From positions 33,165,075 to 33,229,074 of the forward strand of contig NC_090376.1 of NCBI RefSeq assembly GCF_036365525.1: a stretch of 64,000 nt of DNA. The letters are read 5' to 3'. This document shows positions 15,678 through 48,499 of this stretch, piece by piece (position 1 is the stretch's first letter; each line of letters begins with the position of its first letter). The notes below the pieces were generated by a model that searched no databases, was not told the origin of the DNA, and saw nothing but the letters and a program-made list of their open reading frames with translations. Made by a program: the position numbers and the translations under genes. Source of the stretch: Heterodontus francisci. Lineage: Eukaryota.

Positions 15678-18600
15678 TTTCTTCTTCTTTGGCCTCCTTG
15701 TCTCGAGAGACAATAAGGAAGTGCCTGGAGGTGGTCAGTGGTTTGTGAAGCAGCTCCTGGAGTGGCTATAAAGGCCAATTCTAGAGTGACAGACTCTTCC
15801 ACAGGTGCTGCAGATAAAATTGGTTGTCAGGGCTGTTACACAGTTGGCTCTCCCCTTGCGCTTCTGTCTTTTTTCCTGCCAACAGCTAAGTTTCTTCGAC
15901 TCGCCACTCTTTAGCCCAGCCTTTATGGCTGCCCGCCAGCTCTGGCGATCACTGGCAACTGACTCCCACGACTTGTGATCAATGTCACAGGAATTCATGT
16001 CGCATTTGCAGACATCTTTAAAGCAGAAACATGGACGGCCGGTGGGTCTGATACCAGTGACGAGCTCACTGTACAATATGTCCTTGGGGATCCTGCCATC
16101 TTCCATGTGGCTCACATGGCAAAGCCATCTCAAGCGCCACTGACTCAGTAGGGTGTATATGCTAGGGATGTTGGCCGCCTCGAGGACTTCTGCAGTGGAG
16201 ATATGGTCCTGCCACCTGATGCCAAGGATTCTCTGGAGGCAGCGAAGATGGAATGAATTGAGACGTCGCTCTTGGCTGACATACGTTGTCCAGGCCTCGC
16301 TGCCATAGAGCAAGGTACTGAGGACACAGGCTTGATACACTCGGACTTTTGTGTTCCGTATCAGTGCGCCATTTTCCCACACTCTCTTGGCCAGTCTGGA
16401 CATAGCAGCAGACGCATTTCCCGTGCGCTTGTTGATTTCTGCATCGAGAGACAGGTTACTGGTAATAGTTGAGCCCAGGTAGGTGAACTCTTGAACCACT
16501 TCCAGAGTGTGGTCGCCGATATTGATGGATGGAGCATTTCTGACGTCCTGTCCCATGATGTTCGTTTTCTTGAGGCTGATGGTTAGGCCAAATTCGTTGC
16601 AGGCAGCCACAATCCTGTCGATAAGTCTTTGCAGACTCTCTTCTGTGTGGGATGTTAATGCAGCATCGAGGAGTTCCCCAATGAGGACCTTCCATACTTT
16701 GGTCTTCGCTCTTAGGCGGGCAAGGTTGAACAACCTGTCATCTGATCTTGTGTGGAGGAAAATTCCTTCTTCTGAAGACTTGAACGCATGTGAAAGCAGC
16801 AGGGAGAAGAAGATCCCAAACAGTCTAGGTGCGAGAACACAGCCCTGTTTCACGCCACTCAGGATAGGAAAGGGGTCTGTTGAGGCACCACCAAGCTGAA
16901 TTCTGCCTTTCATATGGCCTGGAATGAGGTGATGATACTTAGTAGCTGGTGAACATCCGACCTTTGCTAGTAGTTTGAAGAGACCACGTCTGCTGACGAG
17001 ATCAAAGGCTTTGGTGAGATCTATGAAAGCAACGTAGAGGGGCATCTGTTGTTCGCGACATTTCTCCTGTACCTGACGAAGGGAGAACAGCATGTCAATG
17101 GTGGATCTCTCTGCTCGAAGCCACACTGTGCCTCAGGGGAGACACGCTCAGCCGGCTTCTGGAGTCTGTTTAAAACGACTCGAGCGAAGACTTTCCCCAC
17201 AATGCTGAGCAGGGAGATTCCATGGTAGTTGTTGCAGTCACCACGATCACCCTTGTTCTTATAGAGGGTGATGATATTGGCATCATGCATGTCCTGTGGT
17301 ACTGCTCCCTCATCCCAGTACAGGCAAAGCAGTTCATGGAGTGCTGAGAGTATAGCAGGCTTGGCACTCTTGATTATTTCAGGGGTAATGCCGTCCTTCC
17401 CAGGGGCTTTCCCACTGGCTAGAGAATCAATGGCATCACTGAGTTCCGATTTTGTTGGCTGTACGTCCAGCTCATCCATGACTGGCAGAGACTGGGCTGC
17501 ATTGAGGGCGGTCTCAGTGACAACATTTTCCCTGGAGTACAGTTCTAGGTAGTGCTCCATCCAGCGGTCCATTTGCTTGCATTGGTCAGTGATTGTGTCC
17601 CCTGATTTAGAATTGAGGGGGGCGATCTTACTGATGGTTGGCCCAAAAGCTCTCTTACTGCCATCATACATTCCTCTGATGTTTCCAGCGTCGGAGGCCA
17701 GCTGAATACGACTCCTTAGGTGTTGCCAGTAGTCATTTGCGCTGCGCCTGGCTGTTCTTTGTGCAGCGCTTCTGGCTGCTTTAAGTGCTACGGATGTTAA
17801 CTCGCTGGGGGCTTTCTTGTAGTTCAACAGTGCAATGCGCTTAGCGGCTATGACAGGTTCCAGCTCTTCAAAGTGAGATTGAAACCAGTCTGCATTCTGC
17901 TTCTCACGTTTGCCAAAGGTGGTCATTGCTGAGTCATAGATGGCGTTTCTGATGTGGGCCCACTTGGTCTCTGCATCCCCTGCAGGAGTGTTTTGAAGGA
18001 CTTTTTCAAGTGAATTTAGAAACTTATGCAACAGCTGTGGATAAGACATTTTGTTAGTGTTGATGCGCGGGCGGCCCTTCTGCTTGGAGTGATGCAGCTC
18101 CTTTGGTTTGAGTGTAACCTTGCTGCACACCAGGGAGTGGTCGGTGTTGCAATCTGCACTGTGGAAGCTGCGTGTGAGTTGAACACTGTTTATAGAGGCT
18201 CGCCTTGTGACGATGAGATCCAGCTGGTGCCAACGACGTGATCTTGGGTGCCTTCAAGAAGCCTGGTGACAGGGTTTAGTATGAAAGAACGAGCTGGTGA
18301 TGCAGAGGTTGTGGTAGGTGCACAACTCCAGCAGTCTCTGTCCATTCTCATTCATCCTTCCAATGCCATAGTGCCCAAGGCAGAAGGGCCATGAGTCATG
18401 GTCGGCCCCAACCCTGTCCCCCAGCAGGAACAAATGTTGAGTATTGGGAAAGCTACTAATGATATGGAGTTCCTCGTAGAACTGGTCTTTAACTTCAGGC
18501 GGGGAGCAGAATGTCGGAGCATAGATGCTGAGTAGGTGTACTGGACCAGAGGCGGTCAGCAGTTGGATGGACAGTATGCATTCCGAGCCATTTGAAGGTG

Positions 18601-19427
18601 GCTCTATCATGCTGAACAAAGAGTTTCTGATGGCGAAGCCCACTCCATGCTGTCTTGGCTCTACAGGATCCCTACCCAGCCAGAAGAAGGTGTAGTCTTG
18701 CTCTCTTTGAGATCCGCTTGCAGGGAGGCGTGTCTCCTGAAGTCCTGCAATGTCTACATTGAGTCTACTGAGCTTGTTGTTAATGATGGCGGTCTTCCGA
18801 GAATCGTTGATTTGTGTAAGGTCTTCCAACAGGCCAGGACACATAGTTCTGACGTTCCAGCTTGCAAAACGAAGGGCTGGTACCTTCTTTCATTTTTTTG
18901 TTGTGCTGTTTGGTGCGGTGTTACAGTCCACTTGTCAGGCAATGACCCTGAGCCTTGATTGAAGCAGGTGGACTGTGGCGGGACAGAACCTTACTGACTG
19001 GGGACTGCCCGGTTTGAGGCGGGCGGTAGCTGTCCAGTGAGATACGATGACCTCTCCCGCCGACAAAGGCAACCCGTGGCGCCCAATCTCTATGCCAGTT
19101 GAGCTGGAATTATAACCCGTAACTGCTGCCTTCCGTGTTGTTTTGGTCACTGTGAGGCGACTATGGAGTGACCTCTCCATGGCGCATGCCTGGGTAGATG
19201 TATGGAGGTTGTGAGTTGCCCAAGCGTCAAAACCCCCCTCTCGGCCTTCCTGGTGGGGTCCAAAGGAGTGCAGAGCACGACGTTTGACACCGGTATGGCT
19301 GCAGGAACTGCCCGAAACATGCCAAAGGTGACAAATGACTGCCTTCGGGGTTTCGCTCCGGATTTTCTGTTAGGGTTTACTCCCTTAGCCCTGGCCTCAC
19401 CTGAAACGCCCACAAGGCAGTGGGATT
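15678..19427 (-). mobile_element. Full-length RTE-clade LINE
   Basis: Single APE-RT frame in three pieces, 5' UTR of about 540 bp, (GAA)n 3' tail. Confidence 0.95.
15735..18885 (-). pseudogene. RTE APE endonuclease/reverse transcriptase, frameshifted
   Basis: ASWNVRTM, LQETR, SIYAPT (APE); DLTKAFD, GVKQGCVLAP, FTYLGS (RT); C-terminal CSTCGRVCHSRIGLYSH zinc finger; FADD motif reduced to ELL-DAAL. Confidence 0.95.
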
Positions 19428-19479: not shown

Positions 19480-19935
19480 TGGAGGGAGAGGAAAGGGGGG
19501 ATGGGGTGCGGGGGGTAGGGGGTGCGGTGGATGCCGGGGGGATGAGGTGGGGGGAAAGGGGTGCAAGGGGGGAGGGGCTGGGGGAAGGGGATGTGTAAGG
19601 GGGAGCTGGGAAGGGGTGCAGGAGAAGGGGGTGCGAGGGGAAGATGATGTGAGGGCTAAGGGGGGGAACTGGGAAGGGGGTGTGAGGGGTGGGGGGAAGG
19701 GGGTGGGGGAAGGGGGTGCGAGGGGGTGAGCTGGGAGGAGGGTGTTGGGGGGGTGGGGGAAGGGGGGGTGTGGGGGGGGGAGCTGGGAAGGGGGTGCGGG
19801 GGAGGGGTTGAGGGGTTGAGGGGAAGGGGGTGCGGGGGGTGAGCTGGGAAGGGGGTGCGGGGGGGGAAGGGAGAAGTGGGGTGAGCTGGGAAGTGGATGA
19901 TCGGGGGGAAGGTGGTGCAAGGGGGGAAGGGGAGA
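19480..19935. repeat. G-rich degenerate tandem repeat (unit about GGGGTGAGCTGGGAAGGGGGTGCG)
   Basis: Repeated gagctgggaagggg and ggggtgcg motifs with extreme G skew. Confidence 0.85.
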
Positions 19936-22735: not shown

Positions 22736-25520
22736 CTAACACCTTCTGCACTTCTGGGGCCCATATCCCTCTATTCCCTTCATATTCATATATTTGTCAA
22801 GATGTCTCTTAAACATCGCTATCGTATCTGCTTCCATCACCTCCCCTGGCAAGTTCCAGGCACTCACCACCCTCTGTGTAAAAAACTTGCCTCCCACATC
22901 CCCTCTAAACTTTGCCCCTCTCACCTTAAACCAATGTCCCCTAGTAACTGACTCTTCCACCCTGGGAAAAAGCTTCTGACTATCCACTCTGTCCATGCCG
23001 CTCATAACTTTGTAAACCTCTATCATGTCGCCCTTTCACCTCTGTCGTTCCAGTGAAAACAATCCGAATTTTTCCAACCTCTCCTCAAAGCTAATGCCCT
23101 CCATCCCAGGCAACATCCTGGTAAACCTCCTTTGTACCCTCTCCAAAGCCTCCACGTCCTTCTGGTAGTGTGGTGACCAGAATTGCATGCAATATTCTAA
23201 GTGTGGCCTAACTAAGGTTCTGTACAGCTGCAACATGACTTGCCAATTTTTATACTCTATGCCCCGACCGATGAAGGCAAGCATGCCGTATGCCTTCTTG
23301 ACTACCTTATCCACCTGCGTTGCCACTTTCAGTGACCTGTGGACCTGTACGCCCAGATCTCTCTGCCTGTCAATACTCCTAAGGGTTCTGCCATTTACTA
23401 TATACCTCCCACCTGCATTAGACCTTCCAAAATGCATTACCTCACATTTTTCCGGATTAAACTCCATCTGCCATTTCTCCGCCCAAGTCTCCAACCGATC
23501 TATATCCTGCTGTATCCTCTGACAATCCTCATTATCATCCGCAACTCCACCAACCTTTGTGTCATCCGCAAACTTACTAATCAGACCAGCTACATTTTCC
23601 TCCAAATCATTTCTATATACTACAAAGAGCAAAGGTCCCAGCACTGATCCCTGCGGAACACCACTGGTCACATCTCTCCATTCAGAAAAACACCCATCCA
23701 CTGATACCCTCTGTCTTCTATGACCGTGCCAGTTCTGTATCCATCTTGCCAGCTCACCTCTGATCCCGTGTGACTTCACCTTTTGCACCAGTCTGCCATG
23801 CGGGACCTTGTCAAAGGCTTTACTAAAGTCCATATAGATAACATCCACTGCCCTTCCTTCATCAATCATCTTCGTCACTTCCTCAAAAAACTCAATCAAA
23901 TTAGTAAGGCACGACCTCCCCTTCACAAAACCATGCTGCCTCTCGCTAATAAGTTTGTTTCTTTCCAAATGGGAGTAAATCCTGTCCCGAATAATCCTCT
24001 CTAATAGTTTCCCTACCACTGACGTAAGGCTCACCAGCCTATAATTTCCTGGATTATCCTTGCCACCCTTCTTAAACAAAGGAACAACATTGGCTATTCT
24101 CCAGTCTTCTGGGACCTCACCTGTAGCCAATGAGGATGCAAACATTTCTGTCAAGGCCCCAGCAATTTCTTCCCTTGCCTCCCTCAGTATTCTAAGGTAG
24201 ATCCCATCAGGCCCTGGGGACTTATCTACCTTAATGCTTTGCAAGACACCCAACACCTCTTCCTTTTTGATAATGAGATGACTGAGACTATCTGCACTCC
24301 CTTCCCTCGGCTCATCATCCACCAAGTCCTTCTCTTTGGTGAATACTGATGCAAAGTACTCATTTAGCACCTCGTCCATTTCCTCTGGCTTCACACATCG
24401 ATTCCCATCTCTGTCCTTGAGTGGGCCAACCCTTTCCCTGGTTACCCTCTTGCTCTTTATATATGTATAAAAAGCCTTGGGATTTTCCTTAATCCTGTTT
24501 GCCAATGACTTTTCATGACCCTTTTTAGCCCTCCTAACTCCTTGCTTAAGTTCCTTCCTACTGTCTTTATATTCCTCAAGTGCTTCATCTGTTCCTAGCC
24601 TTCCAGCCCTTACAAATGCTTCCTTTTTCTTTGACTAGGCTCACAATATCCCGTGTTATCCAAGCTTCCCGAAACTTGCCAAACTTGTCTTTCTTCCTCA
24701 CAGGAACATGCTGGTCCTGGATTCTAATCAGCTGACGTTTGAAAGACTCCCACATGTCAGATGTTGATTTACTCTCAAACAGCCGGCCCCAATCTAAATT
24801 CTTCTGTTCCTGCCTAATATTGTTATAATTAGCCTTCCCCCAATTTAGCACCTTCACCTGAGGACTACTCTTATCCTTATCCACAAGTACCTTAAGACTT
24901 ATGGAATTATGGTCACTACTCCGAAATGCTTCCCCACTGAAACTTCGACCACTTGGCCGGGCTCATTCCCCAATACCAGGTCCAGAATGGCCCCATCCCT
25001 AGTTGGACTATCTACATACTGTTTCAAGAAGCCCTCCTGGATGCTCCTCATAAATTCTGCCCCATCCAAGCCCCTAGCACTAAGTGAGTCCCAGTCAATA
25101 TTGGGGAAGTTAAAATCACCCACCACCACAACCCTGTTACCTTTACATCTTTCCAAAATCTGTCTACATATCTGCTCCTCGACCTCCCGCTGGCTGTTGG
25201 GAGGCCTGTAGTGAACCCTTCCTATTCCTGACCTCCACCCATATTGCCTCGCTGCATGACCCCTCTGAGGTGTCCTCTCTCAGTACAGCTGTGATATTCT
25301 CCTTAACCAGTAATGCAACTCCCCCACCCCTTTTACATCCCCCTCTATCCTGCCTGAAGCTTCTAAAGCCTGGAACATTTAGCTGTCAATCCTTACCTTC
25401 CCTCAACCAAGTCTCTGTAATAGCAACAACATCATATTTCCAAGTACTAATCCAAGCTTTAAGTTCATCTGCCTTACCTGTTATACTTCTCGCATTGAAA
25501 CAAATGCACTTCAGACCACC
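22736..25520 (-). pseudogene. CR1 ORF2 (APE + RT); longest open part 23036-24505
   Basis: VVGDFNFP, LDLVL, KSPGPDG, NYRLVSLTS, DFSKAFDKVPH, GVPQGSVLGP, KFADDTK; several frameshifts. Confidence 0.93.
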
Positions 25521-32339: not shown

Positions 32340-33425
32340 TCACCCTACCACCCCTCCTCCTCCAAGTTTAGTAGGAATAGGGCTGAGGGAGCAGGAGGTG
32401 GGTCTCATGGACAAGATGAGCTCAGAGAGTGCATGAGGGGAGATAGGAGAGGACCTAGAGAAAGATGCAAGTTCAGGGCTAGGGCAGGTGGAAACTTTAG
32501 AGGAAGTTTGGCCTGGTGGGTTTGTAGAAAAGAGGGACATGGTAGAGGCAACTGATCTTGATCTTCGTGACAAAGAAGTCCATGATCTTCCCACACTTAT
32601 TGTTGGGGGTGAGGGTGGAGGGGACAGAGAAGAAGAGTTTAAGAGGACAGTTTGCAGTAGAGAAAAGAAGCCAGCGCTTATCTTTGCATTTTGAGATGAT
32701 CCTGGAATAGTGAGCAGTTTCAGCAGACAAGAGTAGGACCCAATAGTGTTTTATGTGGTCCAGCCAGATCTGGCAGTGGATGGATAAACCAATTATCCAT
32801 CATATCCTTTGAAATATGCGTCCCTTGGACTTAAGGGCGGCACAGTGGCGCAGTGGTTAGCACCGCAGCCTCACAGCTGCAGGGACCCGGGTTCAATTCC
32901 GGGTACTGCCTGTGTGGAGTTTGCAAGTTCTCCCTGTGTCTGCGTGGGTTTTCTCCGGGTGCTCCGGTTTCCTCCCACAAGCCAAAAGACTTGCAGGTTG
33001 ATAGGTAAATTGGCCATTATAAATTGTCACTAGTATAGGTAGGTGGTAGGGAAATATAGGGACAGGTGGGGATGTTTGGTAGTAATATGGGATTAGTGTA
33101 GGATTAGTATAAATGGGTGGTTGATGTTCGGCACAGACTCGGTGGGCCGAAGGGCCTGTTTCAGTGCTGTATCTCTAATCTAAAAAAAAAGATGAGAACT
33201 GTACTAGGGAAATGGCCAGGGTGAGAGAGAATAATGATTTTATTGGGGACTAGGGCATCAAAGTTGGAGGTGAGGGTATAGTTGAACAAATCAGTGGCAA
33301 CAGCAATGTGGTGAACGGAGGACCAAAGGCTAGACAGTTGGGATTTTAAAAGTGCAATTGTAAGTGAACTGGGGAATGCTTTACTCCAGGGAAGATACAG
33401 GAGGAAATAGGAAATAAGGCTGGCT
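32340..33425 (-). mobile_element. L2-like LINE fragment interrupted by HE1
   Basis: HYSRII..LLFSTAN..LK..DFFVTKI resembles the L2 APE-RT linker. Confidence 0.55.
32835..33190 (+). mobile_element. HE1-type V-SINE, full length
   Basis: A box tggcgcagtgg, B box ggttcaattcc, V-domain, tail gggccgaagggcctgtttcagtgctgta matching the CR1 3' end. Confidence 0.95.
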
Positions 33426-35174: not shown

Positions 35175-36310
35175 GGCTCTTAAAACAAATGTACCAAATA
35201 CTATAACAATGTTTGGTAAACTAAATGAAGGGTTCTTTATTAAAGAATACAGGATTTTTGCAGAGCTCTTCAATACACGTGCTACCTGCTGACGAACACT
35301 GATTCAACAACTGTATCACATGTTCACTTGCATCACTTCCTGTGATGATGTATACTAGGTTATTTGCATATTTAGCAGTACGTGAACTAGTATTAAAGCA
35401 GTATCACAACATTCCCCTTTCCTTAAATAGAAAAATTAAATTGAGCTTTTTCATAATTGGATAGGTTAATTGTGAACAGCATTCATACTTGTATGGACTC
35501 TCATATTAATTATTCAAGTGTCTCTGGAACGTACAAGTGGTCTGCTGACTTGACCTGATCTGGCAACAGTGAAACTTTGCTGAGATTTGGAATTGTCAAT
35601 TCTTTTCTCTTGATTCACAGATCTAGACTGACAATTATCTTGTACTTGAGTGCTATATGTGTCATTTTCCTTAACTTCACTCTCAGGACTTGAATGTGAA
35701 TGGGTTCTTGATGCTACAGGAATGTTAGGTATGATGCTGTTTGATAACTTTCCCAGCTGACATCTATTCCTCCTCAACATCGCTCCATTCGGAGTGGTTA
35801 GCTCCCATGACCATGGCTTAGTACAGATCTTTGACACTTCCGCAGGGAACCATGTCTTCTCTTGCAGGTGGATAACTCTGACCTTCTGTCCGATCTGCAG
35901 AGGAGGCAACTCCACACCTGCATGATTGTCATAGGTGATTTTCATTTTCTCTTGTCCTGCCAATAATTTATCTTGGACAGATGAGGATCTGATCAAATAT
36001 TGTCCTGAGTTGCCTTCCGAACATGATCTCTACTTGGGATGGTAATCCCGCATCTAGTGGTGTTGCTCGTAGGTGCAATGTTGTTATTTAAATGACTTGA
36101 TTAGTATCCTTACATTTCAATATTAGTGACTTTACTGTTCACACCATCCTTTTGGCTAGTCCATTTGACCTTGGATAGTGTGGAGATGACATAATGTGAT
36201 TTACAGCCCACTTCGTGCACATGTCTTGAAATGGCTTACTGGTGTACTGTGAACCGTTTTCCAACACTATCTCCTCCGGTGAACCAAAAAGACTGAAAAT
36301 TACTCTCATC

Positions 36311-36970
36311 GGGCTGGAATTTATAAAAACAGTGGCGGCCCACCCGCGTGAGCCGCACATCGCAGAGTCGCCATGATATTAAGCACAGCAGCTCATTTAA
36401 ATAGCCCGGGTGGACCCCCCCCCCCACACCCCAGCGATGATGTGGAGGGGGCAGGCTGTCCATCCCTGGCAATGGCATTAGTTACCTGCGCGCAGGCATT
36501 GGCACCATTTTTAAAGGACTTCAAGCCCTAACATTCAATTTAAACATTTAAATGTAAATTTAATTTAAAAATTTAAATCTATTTAAATTGTCCCTCTCCC
36601 ACCCACACCCTCAAAAACCAGAAAATTAATTACTTGCCCTCTCCCCCCCCCAAACAAAACACTTACCCTGCCCACTCCCTGTCCCCCACCCCTGCACTGT
36701 GAAACTTACCTGCTCCACCTCCCCCACCAGTGTTCCACCTCAGTTCCCTGGAAGGGGATCCAAAGGCACGAGAGTGCCAGCCACCTGCACGAAGATGGCA
36801 GCAGGACTGACAACGGGAGCGTAATGGCGAGGGGGGTGGGGGGTGGCGGGGGCGCCACGAAGCCTCACCGCCACTGGCATTATCAGGCCTGGCCTCTTCT
36901 GGAGGCATTTTCTGCCCCTCCCCCACTCCATCACTACCCCCGATGCCAGGGGGTCTGTAAAATACAGCCC
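36311..36970. mobile_element. Harbinger-type MITE in the Gypsy integrase
   Basis: TIRs gggctggaattt / aaaatacagccc; 3-bp TSD ATC. Confidence 0.85.
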
Positions 36971-37200
36971 ATCGTGTTTGCTATGGGTGCACTTAATGTA
37001 ACCCTCAGTTAGTGAATGATAGGAAATTTGGAGAAGTAGTCAGTAATATGCAAGAAGTCATCACCTCTGACAGTAAAAATGTTAGTAGCTATTCTTGAAC
37101 ATGATGTAATGGAACATCATGAGGATGAAATGGCTCTCTGTGTTGACTCAGCTGATGCTTGTATCATGTATTGCATGTCCTCACAGCTCATTCTATCTTG

Positions 37201-37519
37201 TTTATTTTATTTCTTTAGAGATACAGCACTGAAACAGGCCTTTCAGCCCACCGAGTCTGTGCCAATGAACAACCACCCAATTATACAAACCCTACAGTAA
37301 TCCCATATTCCCTACCACCTACCTACACTAGGGGCAATTTACAACAGCCAATTTACCTATCACCTGCAAGTCTTTGGCTGTGGGAGGAAACCGGAGCACC
37401 CAGTGAAAACCCACGCGGTCACAGAGAGAACTTGCAAACTCCGCACAGGCAGTACCCAGAATTTAACCCGGGCCCTGGAGCTGTGAGGCTGCGGTGCTAA
37501 CCACTGCGCCACTGTGCCG
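37201..37519 (-). mobile_element. HE1-type V-SINE
   Basis: Same head, V-domain and tail as 32835-33190. Confidence 0.9.
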
Positions 37520-38087
37520 TGATTGATCACTGGCCAATAAACTCTCTCACTTGCAAGTTGTTTTGATCTTTCAATGCCCATGTGACCTTGATGTAATTGG
37601 GTAAGGATAGCCAATATCTCAATACCTGTCTTTCCTTGAAAATGACCATTTGATATCCCCAATTTGTCACAATATAGCAAAAAGATTGTGAGGTCTGTGA
37701 GAACATCTTGCATTGTACCTGTCCATCCAGTGATATGCTGCCATAATGCCCTAAGGACAGGATTTCTGGAAGTCTCTCTTTGGAGCTCTATGCATTTGTT
37801 CTGTCCAAATTGCTTTAGGTCAATGTTGTACATATCTAGTTCCACATCTACTTCGTCCAATTGGACATCCTCCAGTAAGTCTTGTCTTCTTTTGGTTGGG
37901 CAGCCTCCTCAATATGTCACACATAATCATGAGGTTTCCAGGTTTATATTGGACTTCACAATCATACATCCCTGTATTTTGATCAGTAGTCTTGGGAGTT
38001 GTGACGGCGCGCTGGTGAGTAGTTTTTGCCAAATAATTGCTATTGGCTTGTGATCAGTCTCAACAACAAAGTGTTTGCCAAGTAGGT

Positions 38088-39107
38088 TGTCAAGAAAATC
38101 CTATATGCCACATGAGAAATATTAATTTCATGGGTTTGAAATTTATCTTAGACTTTTAATGAGAAATATCCTACAAGTTAACTTTAAAAAACAACTAGCA
38201 GCCAAGATGACCACTGCCATTTACATGTGAAATACCAGGAGATTGAACTGGGGACAAAAAGTCTAACAAGAAGCCCAGCCAGAACAATTCTTTGGCTAAC
38301 TGAGTAGATTAGCCAGATCATCCTTGTTAGCGGGACATCGCAAACTATTTCAGCATTCATAAATGGAACCGTACCTCCGGGGGTAAGTCCTGACAACTCC
38401 ACCTGAGAAAGGTTTTGTGTTTTAGAATTGGGACCTCATTAAAAACAAAGGGGATTGAGAGAACCATGTGACTGTCTATCAATCTCAGAAGAAACTGGGA
38501 GTTGTTAGACAAAGAGACAAGCAGTAACAGAGTGGGCTGCAGCTGAAAGCTGTGTGCTTCCCTTTCTCTCTCTCTCTCCCCAGTTGAAAACCATCGGTAA
38601 CTGGGGGACCCTCCAAGCCTACTGACTGTGACAGCCAATGACAAGAGGAAGAGAACCAACTGCAATTCTACCTTCAAGCAACAGTGAGCAAAGCAGGCCA
38701 ACCAAAATGCACTTTGACCAACGAGGACTTCAAGAATACAGCTTCAGCCGAGGACTACTGGATCATCCACTGTGTATTTAAATTCCATTTATTCTGGACT
38801 TTAATCCAACCACCAAATCTAATTTTTCCTCTGTAATCTATTTGTGTGTGTGTAATTCTCGTGTGAATGTGTAGTGTTTTGTTTTAGTATTTTTAAATCG
38901 GGTTAGAGTGTTAAGCTTACCTCTTTCTTGTTTAAATTTAAGAAGACCTGTCCAATTGGTTCTTTCATGATCACAGTAAAGGTAAAACGTAAAACACTCA
39001 GAGGTGGTAAGCACAACTACTGTTTAAAAGGAATAAACCCTATTGCGGTCAAATGAGAGGAAGAGCGCAAGGCGAGCCTGAGACCCCCTCCTCACTTGGC
39101 TGTAACA
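38088..39107 (+). mobile_element. Solo LTR (family A) in Gypsy RNase H
   Basis: TGT...ACA termini; TSD AGGT/AGCT; removing it restores FHVYLLGKHFVVETDHKP. Confidence 0.85.
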
Positions 39108-39989
39108 AGCTACACATGGAATCTGGTAATACTGAACACTAATGCCAATGTTTCTCGTTCTATGTTTAATAGTTCTCCTGAGTGGGTGACAAACTTTTAG
39201 AACCAAACGTAATTAATCTACCTTCCTGTAACAGACATGCTCCAAAACCCTCTTGTGATGCATCAACTTTGTGTGTAGTTTCCTTGGGTTATAGTATTGT
39301 AAACATTCTTCAGCAGAAAGTGACTTTTAATGAATTTGTGTTCTGATGATTTCACGCCACAAGAATGGCACATCTTTCTTGAAAAGTTCACGTAGTGATG
39401 AGGCTTTCCCTAAGAAATTTGAGATATATGGTGCTAAGAAGTTAAACTGACTCAAAGCCTCAACTTTACTGGGATATGGTCATATTCCAGTGTCAGAATA
39501 GATTGAACTGAAAAAATTAATATGGCTCACATTGATAGCACATTTTTTGCTATTATGCATGAGACCTTCTCTTCTAGCAGTCTCCATTAGAATGTGAGGA
39601 TACTTGTCATGCTCTTCCCATGACTGCTATGTCATCAGCAATGCAAACACAACCAGGATAATGTGATCCATATGTTGTAGGACCATGTTTTGATTCACTG
39701 CCAGACCGAATGATAACTCTGGAAAGTAATACCTCCCAAAAGGTGTTCTGAATGTTGTTGGTTCCTGTGAATCTTTGGAAAGATGTACTGACCAATATCT
39801 ATGTTTCACACCCAACTTTGAGAAGAACTTGGCTCCAGCAAACCTTGGTGTTACACTAATGTATTTTGTTGAATGATCCATTTATTCCTACTCTTTTTTC
39901 TGTCTGTTAACCATTCTTCATTCCATGCTATTACCCAATCCTATGAGCCCTAATCTTCTGCGACAACCTATTGTACGGCACCTTATTGC

Positions 39990-43434: not shown

Positions 43435-43812
43435 TGAAAAATTCTTTCATGGGATGTGGATGTTGCCTGCAAGACCAGCATTTGTTGCCCATTCCTAACT
43501 GCCCTTGACCTGAGCAGCTTGCTAGGCCATTTCAGAGGGCAGTTAAGAGTCAACCACATTGCTGTGGGGCTGGAGTCACATGTAGGGACAGCACATTTCC
43601 TTCCCTAAAGGACTTGTGAACCAAATGGGTTTTTACGACAGTTGATGATAGTTTCATGGCACCATTGCTGAGACTAGCCTTCAATTCCAGATTTTAAATA
43701 ATTGAATTTAAATTCCACCAGCTGCCGAGGTGGGATTTGAACCCATGTCCCCAGGGCATTAGCCCAGGCCTCTGGATTACTAGTCCAGTGACATTACCAC
43801 TACTCCACCGTC
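43435..43812 (-). mobile_element. tRNA-derived SINE with CR1-like tail
   Basis: Same family as 7430-7840 and 29905-30706. Confidence 0.8.
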
Positions 43813-43962: not shown

Positions 43963-44237
43963 AAATTTATTATTGTGTTCATTATATGGGTCTAAAATGT
44001 TATCAGTTTAGCAATGCAGAGACCCATGTCTGATAAATGTGGAAATTCAAACCACTAGATTGTTTGGGACCTTTTTTTTTGGCAGCCCTGACAATTGCCT
44101 GAAATGAGCACAGGCCATTTAAGTATTGGAATGAGGCTCCAGCTCTTAATTCAGCCCCAGTTTCCTAAATTCGGAGCTCCAACTGGCATCTCTGGGTATT
44201 GAGCAGCCTGAACAACGGTCCTTAAAGGGAACATAGG

Positions 44238-44511
44238 TGTTGTATGATTGCCTTTAAGAGTGATGTCCCTTTAAGATTTTCGTATGTTAATGAACCAAGT
44301 ACCACGATGCAGTTATGTGACTCGAAGCTTGAATCTCTCTGCTACTGTAACACCTAGAAGCAGGTTCTGTAAATAGTTAGTTCTGTACTGTATATACTTA
44401 GCTGTTAATAAACCTGTTTGAAATCTTCAACCAACTGGACTCCACGCATTTCATTTATGTCGTATCAGACATCACAAAAATAATTCATTATGGTGGCAGC
44501 TCCTCATTAAA
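44238..44511 (+). repeat. 5' LTR
   Basis: Direct repeat of 47297-47572, roughly 85-90% identical by eye; TG start; AATAAA near 44407. Confidence 0.95.
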
Positions 44512-44529
44512 TGGTGGCAGCTGCGGTGA
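44512..44529 (+). promoter_or_regulatory. Primer-binding site, probably tRNA-Leu
   Basis: tggtggcagc(tg)cggtga immediately after the LTR, close to the complement of a tRNA-Leu 3' end (TGGTGGCAGCGGTGG). Confidence 0.7.
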
Positions 44530-45229
44530 GAAGACACAATCTAAACTTGAAGACCACAGGTAAAACAGCTCTGAAAAGACCTTTCCCACAGCTAAGAGAG
44601 AGAAAGTTAAAAAAACTGGCTCAAACAGTAAAAAAAAAACTTACCCAAGCTGTAGAAGACAGAGCACAGAATGGCAAGCTGCAAATAAGTCAGGTGAATC
44701 GTTGTGCCAACAGTTGAGGGATACTGCCTTAAAAAAAGCTCTGAAAAGCTTAAAAATTGATTTTTTTTCAATGCCTCTGTTTAAAAACAAACTGGGAAGA
44801 CCCGACTCCTCTCCCAGGCTGATTAAAGTTGGTGCCATTACAGGAGGCGCCTGACAGCAAAAAGCATGGCAAAGCTCCATTCACGTAGCTTGCAGCTAAA
44901 GCTTAAAAAAATCATTAAATTACTTTAACATGAAGAGCTTTCATTCATGCAGTCAAAGTTTAAAAAACCCATAAAACCACTCAAGTGTGAAGAATTGCCT
45001 ATTGAACGGCTGTATCAATAAACTCTAGCAGAGGGAAAAACACATGAAATGCCTAGTGCAGCGACAGACAGAGTGCTGGAAGTTAGATAAACAGACAAGC
45101 ACTGCCACACACCTGCTCCTGTCAGACAAAGCAGCCAGTCTAGATAAGAGTTTTTTAAAAAAGGGAATACAGTACAGAGTCATAGAGCAAGTCTTAAAGC
45201 AAGTTTTAAAGCAAAAGAACAGCAGGAAG

Positions 45230-46510
45230 ATGAATACCAAATTTCCCAGCATGAACTAGAAGGCCATAGATATCCTATCCGAGTTCCAATTTTTCAAACA
45301 GAAAACGCAGTTATGCTTCACCGACCAAGAGATTACAGAACCAGAAAAACAGGCTGTAAAAATAATGATAGCAATTGGAAATGAGGGTTTATACAGAATC
45401 AATACCTCAGGCATATTTGAAGAGGACCAGAAAGATCCCACAAAGATATGAAAAGTGCTGGAAGATCAGCTCCAATTTAAGAGTAAATTTTAGAATTCAC
45501 CAGCTGGAATTGATGTCCTGCAGGCAACAGCTGCAGGAATCAATAGACCAGTTCATCAGTAGATTCTGTAACGAGGGCAACGAATGCGATTTTTCAGAAG
45601 CTGAGCTGTCAGACTGAATAATGGAGTTGGTGATTTTCTCATCATCCATTGAAGTGTTTCAGAAGGACCTCTTGGGGAAAAAGAAAGGTCACAGCATTGA
45701 TGCACTGCTAGAAGATGGCAGCAATTATGAAGCCATTGTAACTGGACAACAACAACAATGAGAACTAGGTGCAGCCAACAGTATTGGCATGATAACCAGG
45801 TCGAAGAGAGCGAGCAAGCTATGTGGGAAGTGTGGTTGGTCCAATTCACTGCGAAGTTGTCCTGCATTTTAGACGTGTGCAAGGCGTGCAGCGTAAAAGG
45901 ACACTGGGCCCACCTATGCAAGAAATCTGGCTCCAAAGTCGCAGCCAGAAGTCATAGTGGGGCACAGACAAACAGACGACTGGTTCAGCAACAGAGCAAC
46001 AGCAGCAAGGACAGCTCCAGAGACCTGCGTAAACGCAAGCCAATACACAAAGTCCACAGTGAAACAGACCTGAGACAAGACTCTGAGAGAAGCAATTCTC
46101 AGCCAAAAGACGAACAGGCGTTCCACATTGTGAACCGGACATGCCATGTTGATGAAAGCAAACAACTGGAAGCTTTCACCATTATTAACATCATGTGTCC
46201 AAAGAGAGCTGGCAAACATACACTTGGAGTTAAGATAGACACTGGCGCTAGTGCAAATATCCTACCAGTTCGAATCCTGAAGGACATGTACCGGAGTCAT
46301 TGGAAATCAATGATACAACCGACAACTTTCAAGTGATCTGAACACAATGGGTCACCCATTCCGTACAGTGGAACACTAACATTACAATGCAGCTATGGCA
46401 AGTCGGCATGGAAACCACAAATATTCTATCCAGTAGACACAAGCGGACCAGCAGTGGCAGGACTACCAGCGTGTAAGGACCTCGATATTGTCACTATTCA
46501 CAAGGTCACC
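45230..46510 (+). pseudogene. gag-pro: Gypsy gag and aspartic protease, with stops and frameshifts
   Basis: QQLQESIDQFISR..CDF capsid-like segment, CKACSVKGHWAHLC CCHC knuckle, VKIDTGASANIL active site, GPAVAGLPACKDL protease C-terminus. Confidence 0.9.
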
Positions 46511-47145
46511 CAATACAGCAGAAGAGACCAAGGGTAGCTGCATTGCCACACCAAGAGAATAAAGATCCAAACTCAGATGGTGAAAGTTCTCTACCAACAG
46601 GCAGTGTTTCTTCATGCTCCAGTGGTTCAGAAGACAAAATTGATGTTGGCACTACTGAGAAGCAAAGGCTGGCAGTGGGGAGCATTGTCAAGGGGAAATC
46701 TCCAAGGACCATAATCCACTCGTAGACTCTGGCCAGCATCAAATGGTGCAGTCTGGAAACCCAGCAATGGCACAACTATGCCACGGCTTTACGTCTGCTA
46801 TCCAGAGAACCGCCAGCACCACAACAAGCTGGAAAGGACAGGTACCGCCATGAAGCCAAGTACTCCTCCCCCAAAATGTCCTCGACCTTGAGCCCAAGAC
46901 CTTCAGGTGCAGAGGATGAGGAGAGGCGAAGGGCATGCAGTGCCTTGAAGAGGAAGACGAGGATTGAGTTGAAGCATTGTCTGTTGATTCTTCGAGATGA
47001 GGTGCTGGAACTTTCCAAGAATGACAAGGCCTCAGAAGTGATCATCATACAGAGTATGTTAGCAGGCTGAAGGCAGAACAACACAAACAATGCAGAGAGG
47101 GAGACACTTCAGAAAAAAACAGCAACAGCTTAGATGCAAATTCTC
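46510..47145 (+). pseudogene. myc: Captured C-terminal half of a Myc-family transcription factor (MBIIIb, MBIV, bHLH-ZIP), decayed
   Basis: One frame reads SSGSEDKIDVGTTEK (MBIIIb), IKWCSLETQQWHNYA (MBIV), SPRPSGAEDEERRRACSALKRKTRIELKHCLLILRDEVLELSKNDKASEVII (basic-HLH); after small indels TEYVSRLKAEQHK..AERETLQKKQQQLRCK (helix 2 and zipper); internal TAG at 46723. Confidence 0.9.
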
Positions 47146-47282
47146 CGGCACACCACCAAAACAATCGATGGACTTTTAAGCTTTTGCACATGTAAAGTTC
47201 ATAATCTCTATCCATGTGTAAATAATTTTGATATCTAATTTTATGTATTTTTTTTTACTTTTAGCATACGAGATTTATCCTT

Positions 47283-47296
47283 GGAAAGAAAGGGGA
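47283..47296 (+). promoter_or_regulatory. Polypurine tract
   Basis: ggaaagaaagggga directly before the 3' LTR. Confidence 0.9.
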
Positions 47297-47572
47297 TATT
47301 GTTTGATTGCCTTTAAGAGTGATGTCCCTTTAGGATCTTAGTATGCTAGTGAACCAAGTATCAGGAGGCAGTTATGAGACTCGAAGCCTGAATCTCTCTG
47401 CTACTGTAACACCTAGAGGCAGGTTCTGTAAATAGTTAGCTCTGTACTGTATATACTTGTTAATTGTTCATAAACCTGTTTGAGATCTTCAAAAAACTGG
47501 ACTCCACGCATCTTATTTATGTTGCATCAGACAACATAAGAACTCATTATATGGTGGCAGTTCCTCATTACA
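47297..47572 (+). repeat. 3' LTR
   Basis: Direct repeat of the 5' LTR; ends in CA followed by the TSD. Confidence 0.95.
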
Positions 47573-48499
47573 ATAGGCTCAAAAAAAGCCCAAATAATTG
47601 GAATCCTTTTTTGTGTTTTGTGGAGTTGGAAGGAGCTCCTGCTGTCACAACAGAACAACTGTGGCTCACTAATGGCCAGCCCTCACCCTCTTCTTGATCA
47701 CACCCCCCACCCTAGTCCCCCTGCTCTGCACCCAACCCTGTTACCGAACCTATCACTAAACCTTGGCCCCATATTCACATGGCCCCAAACCAGGCAAAGT
47801 GCATTAGGGTGCTTCATTGGTGCCTACTGCTTGCTTGATTTGTTTTGATGAGGTACAAGGGCAAGTTTACTTTAGACCTCGCACCTCTCCATTCTAGTGC
47901 ACCAAATTTGCTAGAATTCATATACAAAGGAACATAAAATCCAAAGTGAGAACAGGCACTTCAGCCGATCAAGCTCACAACTTCCAAAATCTGTGTATAA
48001 CTATTCTATCATGGACATATCTACTTATTTGATATTCTTTTCGCATTGAAACACATAGAATCTGCATCACTCATAAATAGTTATGAAGTTTCTCTGATTA
48101 TGGGACAAGCTGCAAGATTGCACCAGACTTGCTTTAAAAGTCTATTCTTTAAAATGCCATCTGCTACAAGGAAGTGCCACTTGAGGCCTGCAAATATGCA
48201 GAACATTCCTGTCCCTTCTGCCAGCACTAGATCCCGCTATGCAAATTCCATAGAGAGGAACACCCACTAATCCCAGATCTGGGCAGTGGTCAGTGAAGGA
48301 GGGCAGGAAAATCTGCACTTTAGTCCTTGGCCTGAGGACACATTCACAGACAGGTTTGGTTTATACTGGTTCAACATTTGTCCTGCTCCACTTTTCTCCA
48401 GTACGGTGTGGCAGATCCTTCAACCACTCCCCCGAAACTCTGCATTCATATTTGCCTTGAGTCAATGGGAAGGTCTGCTGGAGGCTGTGTTGTAATGAA

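Follow-up and report, generated by a model that had tools for sequence, protein, structure and literature searches.

An intronless mych segment replacing the pol core of an old Ty3/Gypsy element in the shark Heterodontus francisci: a likely LTR-mediated retrocopy

The stretch of Heterodontus francisci DNA considered here (64,000 nucleotides, hereafter the window; assembly GCF_036365525.1, contig NC_090376.1, forward-strand positions 33,165,075 to 33,229,074) contains a Ty3/Gypsy LTR element in which a piece of a myc-family gene lies downstream of the protease linker (Table 1). LTRs, primer-binding site (PBS), polypurine tract (PPT), a short target-site duplication (TSD), a CCHC gag and an aspartic protease are all present, and the gag-protease relatives of the element are Gypsy-type polyproteins. 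The 5' and 3' LTRs match at 241 of 278 aligned columns (K2P 0.124), by which measure the myc-carrying element is old. Its PBS is presumably of the tRNA-Leu type, and this trait, together with the 5-bp TSD, may suggest the Mag clade of Ty3/Gypsy. The first ten PBS bases recur in both LTRs (44491-44500 and 47552-47561), about 21 nt before the 3' end, apparently as a duplication of the LTR end and the PBS start in the founder. An Rfam search found nothing inside the element and one sub-threshold tRNA-like match outside it (43729-43808); this stretch and a similar one at 32839-32911 are probably SINE heads.

Table 1. Features of the mych-carrying element and its borders, in window positions
Feature	Position	Strand	Remarks
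Left target-site duplication, ATAGG, 5 bp	44233..44237	.	same as 47573-47577
Whole carrier, Ty3/Gypsy LTR element	44238-47572	+	3335 bp; LTRs, 5-bp TSD, PBS, PPT, gag-protease
5' LTR, 274 nt	44238..44511	+	
Primer-binding site	44512..44532	+	TGG-starting word immediately 3' of LTR end
Decayed gag	45230..46180	+	several stops and frameshifts; tblastn of full-length relatives, several frames
CCHC zinc knuckle in gag	about 45878-45919	+	Pfam zf-CCHC_3, E 4.6e-4, below curated cut-off
Aspartic protease and protease-RT linker	46181..46545	+	DTG 46238-46246; stop 46334-46336
Secondary deletion point, frame changes	46545..46546	+	versus sister copy P0008
Captured mych exon 2 end	46546..46630	+	28 codons and 1 base; 21/28 identical to P0002 156-183
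Exon 2/exon 3 junction, phase 1, intron absent	46630..46631	+	ungapped alignment; site from zebrafish mych morpholino
Captured mych exon 3, acidic box to bHLH-zipper	46631..47143	+	ends 8 codons before parent's stop
Lys at E-box-reading glutamate position of basic region	46948..46950	+	
Probable integrase last codons and stop	47144..47179	+	3' switch at about 47143/47144
AT-rich spacer, probably element's own 3' non-coding region	47180..47282	+	
Polypurine tract	47283..47296	+	
3' LTR, 276 nt, CA at end	47297..47572	+	
Right target-site duplication, ATAGG, 5 bp	47573..47577	.	

A search for relatives among cluster representatives gave 474 proteins at E up to 0.001, the best 150 of which were used. 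In these relatives the protease linker runs on into reverse transcriptase (RT) at the equivalent of 46181..46545, and the pol order PR-RT-RH-IN is seen in P0153 (RT, RNase H and integrase) and in P0138 (RT before integrase); four long relatives that were scanned yielded RT in every case and integrase in two, in Gypsy order. The myc-carrying element itself keeps only the two ends of pol. No match to RT, RNase H or the integrase core, domains which the relatives carry, was found within 44238-47572, and none of 10 relatives matched the element downstream of the protease linker in tblastn. Compared with six full-length relatives, the loss amounts to ~750-890 codons of pol, and between 47179 and the PPT there is no room for env.

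The window frame 46510-47049, with X at its one stop, retrieved six matches (1311 candidates of 316-2000 residues), all of them shark proteins, the top one being mych of H. francisci itself (P0002, annotated as 'myelocytomatosis oncogene homolog'; 72% identical, E 1.5e-63). E against the window is 4.7e-71 for this mych, and shark N-myc (8.6e-17) and coelacanth c-myc (3.6e-12) score far less well; the parent is therefore mych, the fourth vertebrate myc paralogue, and not c-, N- or L-myc. In a 19-row tree, whose rows do not include L-myc, the window copy and six further copies described below group with Heterodontus mych (93/94, unstarred), and the clade formed by the copies themselves is weak (73/66). 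The end branches of the copies (0.11-0.27, versus 0.031 for parental mych) are long, as expected for decay, and H. francisci itself has an intact parent gene. A Pfam search of the window's myc frame gave neither a Myc nor an HLH family at E up to 1; the identity of the frame comes from the protein searches and alignments. In another mych examined, that of Scyliorhinus torazame (P0004), 21 residues immediately ahead of the basic region are duplicated in tandem, which may be an assembly artefact.

The captured segment spans the boundary between exons 2 and 3 with no intron in between. On alignment with P0002 by tblastn the junction is crossed ungapped, with 21/28 identities in the exon 2 part (46546-46629) and 22/31 in the first exon 3 part (46630-46722), and the frame 46546-47049 translates across it as PHQENKDPNSDGESSLPTGSVSSCSSGS-EDKIDV. 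For the exon 2 part, none of 100000 shuffles reached 21 identities (best 13), and the next best among 127828 six-frame windows had 9/28. A sequence-only reading of this DNA had quoted a contiguous run of bases at this place, with Ser-rich coding sequence upstream; the bases lie where it put them, G|A at 46630/46631, the contiguity of the exons holds on alignment, and the contrary case which it had named, homology beginning only at exon 3, is excluded by the exon 2 part.

The intron site was taken from zebrafish mych and not from Heterodontus DNA. The zebrafish splice-donor morpholino described in PMC2323570 pairs with the S-D-S codons and a G, followed by GTGAGT, and the intron concerned is intron 2, for which PMC3958507 gives products of 162 bp when spliced and 396 bp when unspliced. 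The phase-1 position is the same in the zebrafish (S-D-S and G) and in the window (S-G-S and G), so that the placing of a phase-1 intron at the boundary of SDS and the acidic run, as given in the sequence-only reading, agrees with the morpholino site. Of 106 full-length cellular proteins, 95 have SDS ahead of the acidic run (111 of 114 proteins were parsed, including five short ones). In 5 of these 111 parsed predictions, one of them from the chimaera Callorhinchus, Myc homology begins exactly at EEEIDVV; the residues before it are F/L/S/C/V-rich and intron-like, and in 5/5 the last of them would fit a YAG phase-1 acceptor, which is indirect evidence of an intron.

The window copy is dead: a stop (46723-46725) and, from about 47050 to about 47120, three frameshifts break its myc part, and gag-protease has further breaks of this sort. 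At the position of the E-box-reading glutamate, set by alignment to c-Myc chains, lysine is found in 7/7 copies and glutamate in 112/112 parsed cellular Myc proteins (2 unparsed). This glutamate is described as the most critical one for E-box binding (PMC3113581). The capture begins at about mych residue 121, past the Myc box II word DCMW at 101, and Myc boxes I-II were found in none of the 7 copies examined. A mych cargo that starts past Myc box II and in none of the 7 copies has the E-box glutamate is unlikely to act as a transforming Myc.

Six H. francisci database proteins (P0003, P0008, P0009, P0010, P0011 and P0013) are sister copies of the window element. They lie on contigs of 214.6 (two copies), 137.2, 98.4, 142.0 and 227.1 Mb, the parent gene on one of 103.5 Mb; the analysis covered the sister copies as predicted proteins. 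Five of the six start with the protease linker or the RT start, in frame with mych, and the start of P0009 is read as linker in another frame. The pol-linker or RT start and mych share one frame in P0003, P0008, P0010 and P0011; the window copy is frameshifted. The lysine common to 7/7 copies points to one founder, and the six further copies suggest renewed transposition of the chimera. Deletions differ among P0003/P0009, P0011, P0013 and the window copy, and the exon junction is wholly missing from P0013. P0003 and P0009 both seem to have lost what lay between two occurrences of an IE/IES word, one in the pol linker and the other in mych; since the two are on contigs of different length, this suggests that a deleted sub-lineage also transposed. 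When an autonomous partner was sought with residues 1-72 of P0008 among 9 candidates of 164-524 residues, two proteins matched, both of them chimeric copies. In the annotation all six sister proteins count as protein-coding 'myc-like' or 'N-myc-like' genes, and they are really mych-derived chimeras; taken at face value they would inflate shark myc counts and distort myc trees.

The sister copies also preserve what the window copy has lost. In the relatives, RT starts with the pattern G-x-F-x-G...HLKEDAxP followed by xIDPPRK. In P0008, P0010 and P0011 this pattern runs up to DTFP, GAFT or DALP and is then succeeded by mych sequence of the VSSPL type, for which the parent has DAVP-VSSPL at 121-129. 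Thus DAxP of pol and DAVP of mych (121-124) have D, A and P in common within four residues, an overlap seen as amino acids only, in sister copies only and against distant relatives. Three of four residues are shared in 2087 of 2409594 random in-frame pairs (0.0009), a chance that holds if the true partner was of the DAxP type, as the closest relatives of the element are; among the 36 of 150 relatives in which the pattern was parsed, 14 have DAxP and 22 do not. In the window copy the original 5' joint is lost, on comparison with P0008, through a later deletion: the RT start and the first ~35 captured mych codons are gone, and at 46545/46546 the linker is followed directly by mych residue 156. 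Alignment of the interval 46510-47160, which the sequence-only reading had proposed as a way to locate the breakpoints, would therefore mislead at the 5' edge.

At the other end, the last residues with mych homology are KF (47138-47143), 8 codons ahead of the stop in the parent; SGTPPKQSMDF-stop follows in the window and SDTPPKRYMDT in P0009. On scoring against integrase ends (11 C-terminal words, which 11 of the 19 long relatives supplied), no background 7-mer out of 92160 beat the P0009 word, and 125 of 92160 scored as high as the window word. The window tail's stop also aligns with the integrase stop of an element of the same clade, a pol-bearing one at about 35.4-39.9 kb, in which integrase stop, spacer, PPT and LTR start are collinear with the tail (0/1000 shuffles as good with PPT and LTR start included, 15/1000 without them; the spacer by itself, at 161/1000, is not significant). 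On these comparisons the tail after mych is probably the element's own end. As P0011 ends in KFSK and the parent in SK, the tail 47144-47282 could also be taken for mych 3' UTR; the comparisons of integrase ends and of collinearity make this the less likely origin, with some probability left for the spacer 47180..47282.

That second Gypsy element (about 35400-39860, minus strand) is itself decayed. It holds pieces of RT, RNase H and integrase, with a PPT near 35412-35424 and an LTR start near 35411, and its 5' part seems lost or buried under insertions. As a direct partner of the myc-carrying element it was ruled out, the two having no blastn match.

The sequence-only reading had further noted neither poly(A) nor a separate TSD around the myc segment, and both absences are borne out. 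From the end of the myc segment to the 3' LTR, A runs reach a length of 4 at most. There is no credible TSD, the longest direct repeat across the edges (46547/47149) being 7 nt and ruled out because it begins inside mych codons; in the window copy this test is weak, as its 5' edge is the later deletion and not the capture point. Features of a LINE-made processed pseudogene are likewise missing: the segment has neither an mRNA 3' end with poly(A) nor a LINE-type TSD in a continuous target, pol being discontinuous by ~750-890 codons.

We regard the structure as likely to be an LTR-mediated retrocopy of mych, made by template switching of a Ty3/Gypsy RT. In the Heterodontus lineage the RT would have switched from element RNA to host mych RNA and back, leaving the element RNA in the last integrase codons and rejoining it at the very start of RT, possibly with the help of nucleotide microhomology at the switch points. 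In this way ~750-890 pol codons would have been swapped for ~238 mych codons (residues about 121-358), in frame with gag-protease. The product, retaining LTRs, PBS and PPT, could then have been mobilised in trans as a non-autonomous element, with further internal deletions arising later in different lineages before decay set in. Double template switching is the best reading because the mych piece replaces the pol core, has both ends inside coding sequence and overlaps with pol at the joint. Similar events are on record among LTR retrocopies, where microsimilarity occurs at 25 of 29 Drosophila junctions, element ORFs are replaced and the products spread non-autonomously, according to PMC5131818. 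Of the earlier proposal, RT template switching on co-packaged mRNA, two parts find support, the RNA step and the non-LINE route. Spliced mRNA carried within the same particle is the most likely template, the maturity of that mRNA and its co-packaging being presumptive.

Intron loss in itself is not proof of the capture of mature mRNA, because a re-transposing element would have a sense-strand intron spliced out in the next round. The argument that a missing intron speaks against DNA-level capture does not hold either, since later re-transposition removes the intron whatever the first step was. An unlikely possibility is therefore a two-step transduction after the classical model of oncogene capture, in which the element was first joined to genomic mych, by insertion in or near exon 2 with a deletion or through a read-through or unspliced RNA template, and splicing of the chimeric transcript then removed the intron; the 3' joint would have been made during reverse transcription. 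Such a course explains the intron loss equally well, as the chimera went through RNA again, and DNA deletions are also marked by short homologies. Capture by way of a chimeric viral-cellular transcript is described in PMC4299795, and PMC3186009, where v-myc of avian MC29 is named as well, reports for c-erbB and c-myb both read-through transcripts and spliced gag fusions. However, the 5' joint falls at mych residues 121-124, in the middle of the probable exon 2 (which ends at residue 184), where a splice joint is unlikely, and an extra, rare germ-line intermediate would be needed at the mych locus, whose gene (P0002) is intact. Gypsy particles moreover assemble in the cytoplasm, where spliced mRNA dominates. 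It is the overlapping joint in mid-exon and the extra intermediate that weaken the two-step course, not the missing intron.

A copy of mych processed by LINE machinery, inserted into the Gypsy element or recombined with it from elsewhere, and stripped by later deletions of its poly(A), 3' UTR, one TSD and the pol core, is improbable. LINE RT genes are present in the window, and a preprint on a VGP set (10.64898/2026.06.26.734816) describes cartilaginous fishes as rich in retrocopies (14,081), tied to non-LTR content. The family is prone to deletions, given the differences among P0003/P0009, P0011, P0013 and the window copy, and in an element of this age (LTR K2P 0.124) a tail could have decayed. 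Nevertheless LINE priming starts at the mRNA 3' end, whereas mych here stops 8 codons early, passes into an integrase-like end and is followed by no poly(A), so that a LINE-made insertion is unlikely. Replacement of pol on both sides would demand two or more additional events, and the 5' overlap (0.0009) is not expected from insertion. The longest A run is 4. Hardly credible is a case in which no intron was lost, Heterodontus mych itself being without intron 2 or the stretch before the junction being an exon-like intron end: although the bases before the junction form a pyrimidine-rich run and CAG, much like a splice acceptor, the upstream stretch encodes 21/28 parental exon-2 residues, zebrafish mych has the intron, and the 5/111 cellular predictions starting at EEEIDVV, 5/5 YAG-compatible, indirectly speak for such an intron.

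Four of seven features of LTR-mediated retrocopies are observed in the template-switch product that we favour: it is intronless, it has both LTRs, an ORF is replaced and LINE hallmarks are absent. As in the cases of Tan et al. 2016 (PMC5131818), a partial, intronless host coding sequence replaces part of an element ORF between LTRs, in sense and in frame, with no poly(A) or TSD of its own. Two further features of those cases, short similarity at the switch and non-autonomous spread, are suggested for the shark element by the amino-acid overlap in sister copies and by the six sister proteins with their common lysine. Compared with the cases described there, the shark element is old and decayed, comes from a cartilaginous fish outside the six taxa of that study, carries a myc-family cargo and has at least seven copies with several nested deletion lineages. 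Host mRNA pieces inside LTR elements are also known from FAM8A1 in HERV-K, with microsimilarity at the fusion points, and from maize Bs1 (both as cited in PMC5131818); these differ from the shark element in carrier and cargo. Crocodilian endogenous retroviruses, with KIT-ligand in CrocERV29 and nectin3 in CrocERV31 (PMC4299795), similarly captured growth-related host genes, are present in several copies and reside in a slowly evolving vertebrate lineage. According to the same source, however, they are retroviruses that keep pol, with cargo ORFs intact under purifying selection. The shark carrier, in contrast, is Gypsy-type, has lost pol and holds a decaying cargo.

The v-myc of avian MC29 has a Gag-Myc structure, and the resemblance lies in a myc-family coding sequence fused in frame behind gag, at the expense of pol and with its intron missing. 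The shark carrier differs in being a retrotransposon with no env seen, and its mych cargo in starting after Myc box II and lacking the E-box glutamate in 7/7 copies. The element is thus not a v-myc: its carrier is Gypsy, and it has neither Myc boxes I-II nor the E-box glutamate.

The mechanism is already known and it is the cargo that is notable, a non-retroviral LTR element having taken a proto-oncogene-family sequence in frame, as MC29 did. The nested deletions among the copies record several rounds of copying and make this an unusually readable case. With the Heterodontus assembly being public, both switch points could be read to the base, and a one-step and a two-step origin would become testable for an old vertebrate event. 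No earlier report of a mych-carrying family in sharks was found in the literature covered, outside which lie most subscription journals and repeat libraries. The main text of the VGP retrocopy preprint (10.64898/2026.06.26.734816) mentions neither myc nor Heterodontus, though its supplements may list such copies.

Considering its composition (no Myc boxes I-II, lysine for the E-box glutamate, an intact HLH-zipper), a released Mych piece could pair with Max. It is improbable, though conceivable, that an in-frame Gag-protease-Mych fusion was translated in the active period of the family and that the product acted in the shark germ line as a Max-pairing, E-box-blind dominant-negative Myc, aiding the spread of the element. 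If this were true, the family would parallel v-myc in a retrotransposon, with the opposite sign, and selection rather than chance would account for the glutamate change in the founder.

Some other sequences in the window may be recorded here. Two minus-strand LINE-type ORFs with RT lie at 15735-18889 (also with endonuclease) and at 23036-24634, with many LINE and SINE fragments around them. A stop-free frame of 285 codons at 702-1559 has a weak, sub-threshold match to DUF6801 (E 2.3e-4), and the stretch 19486-19924 is a G-rich low-complexity tract made up of imperfect repeats.
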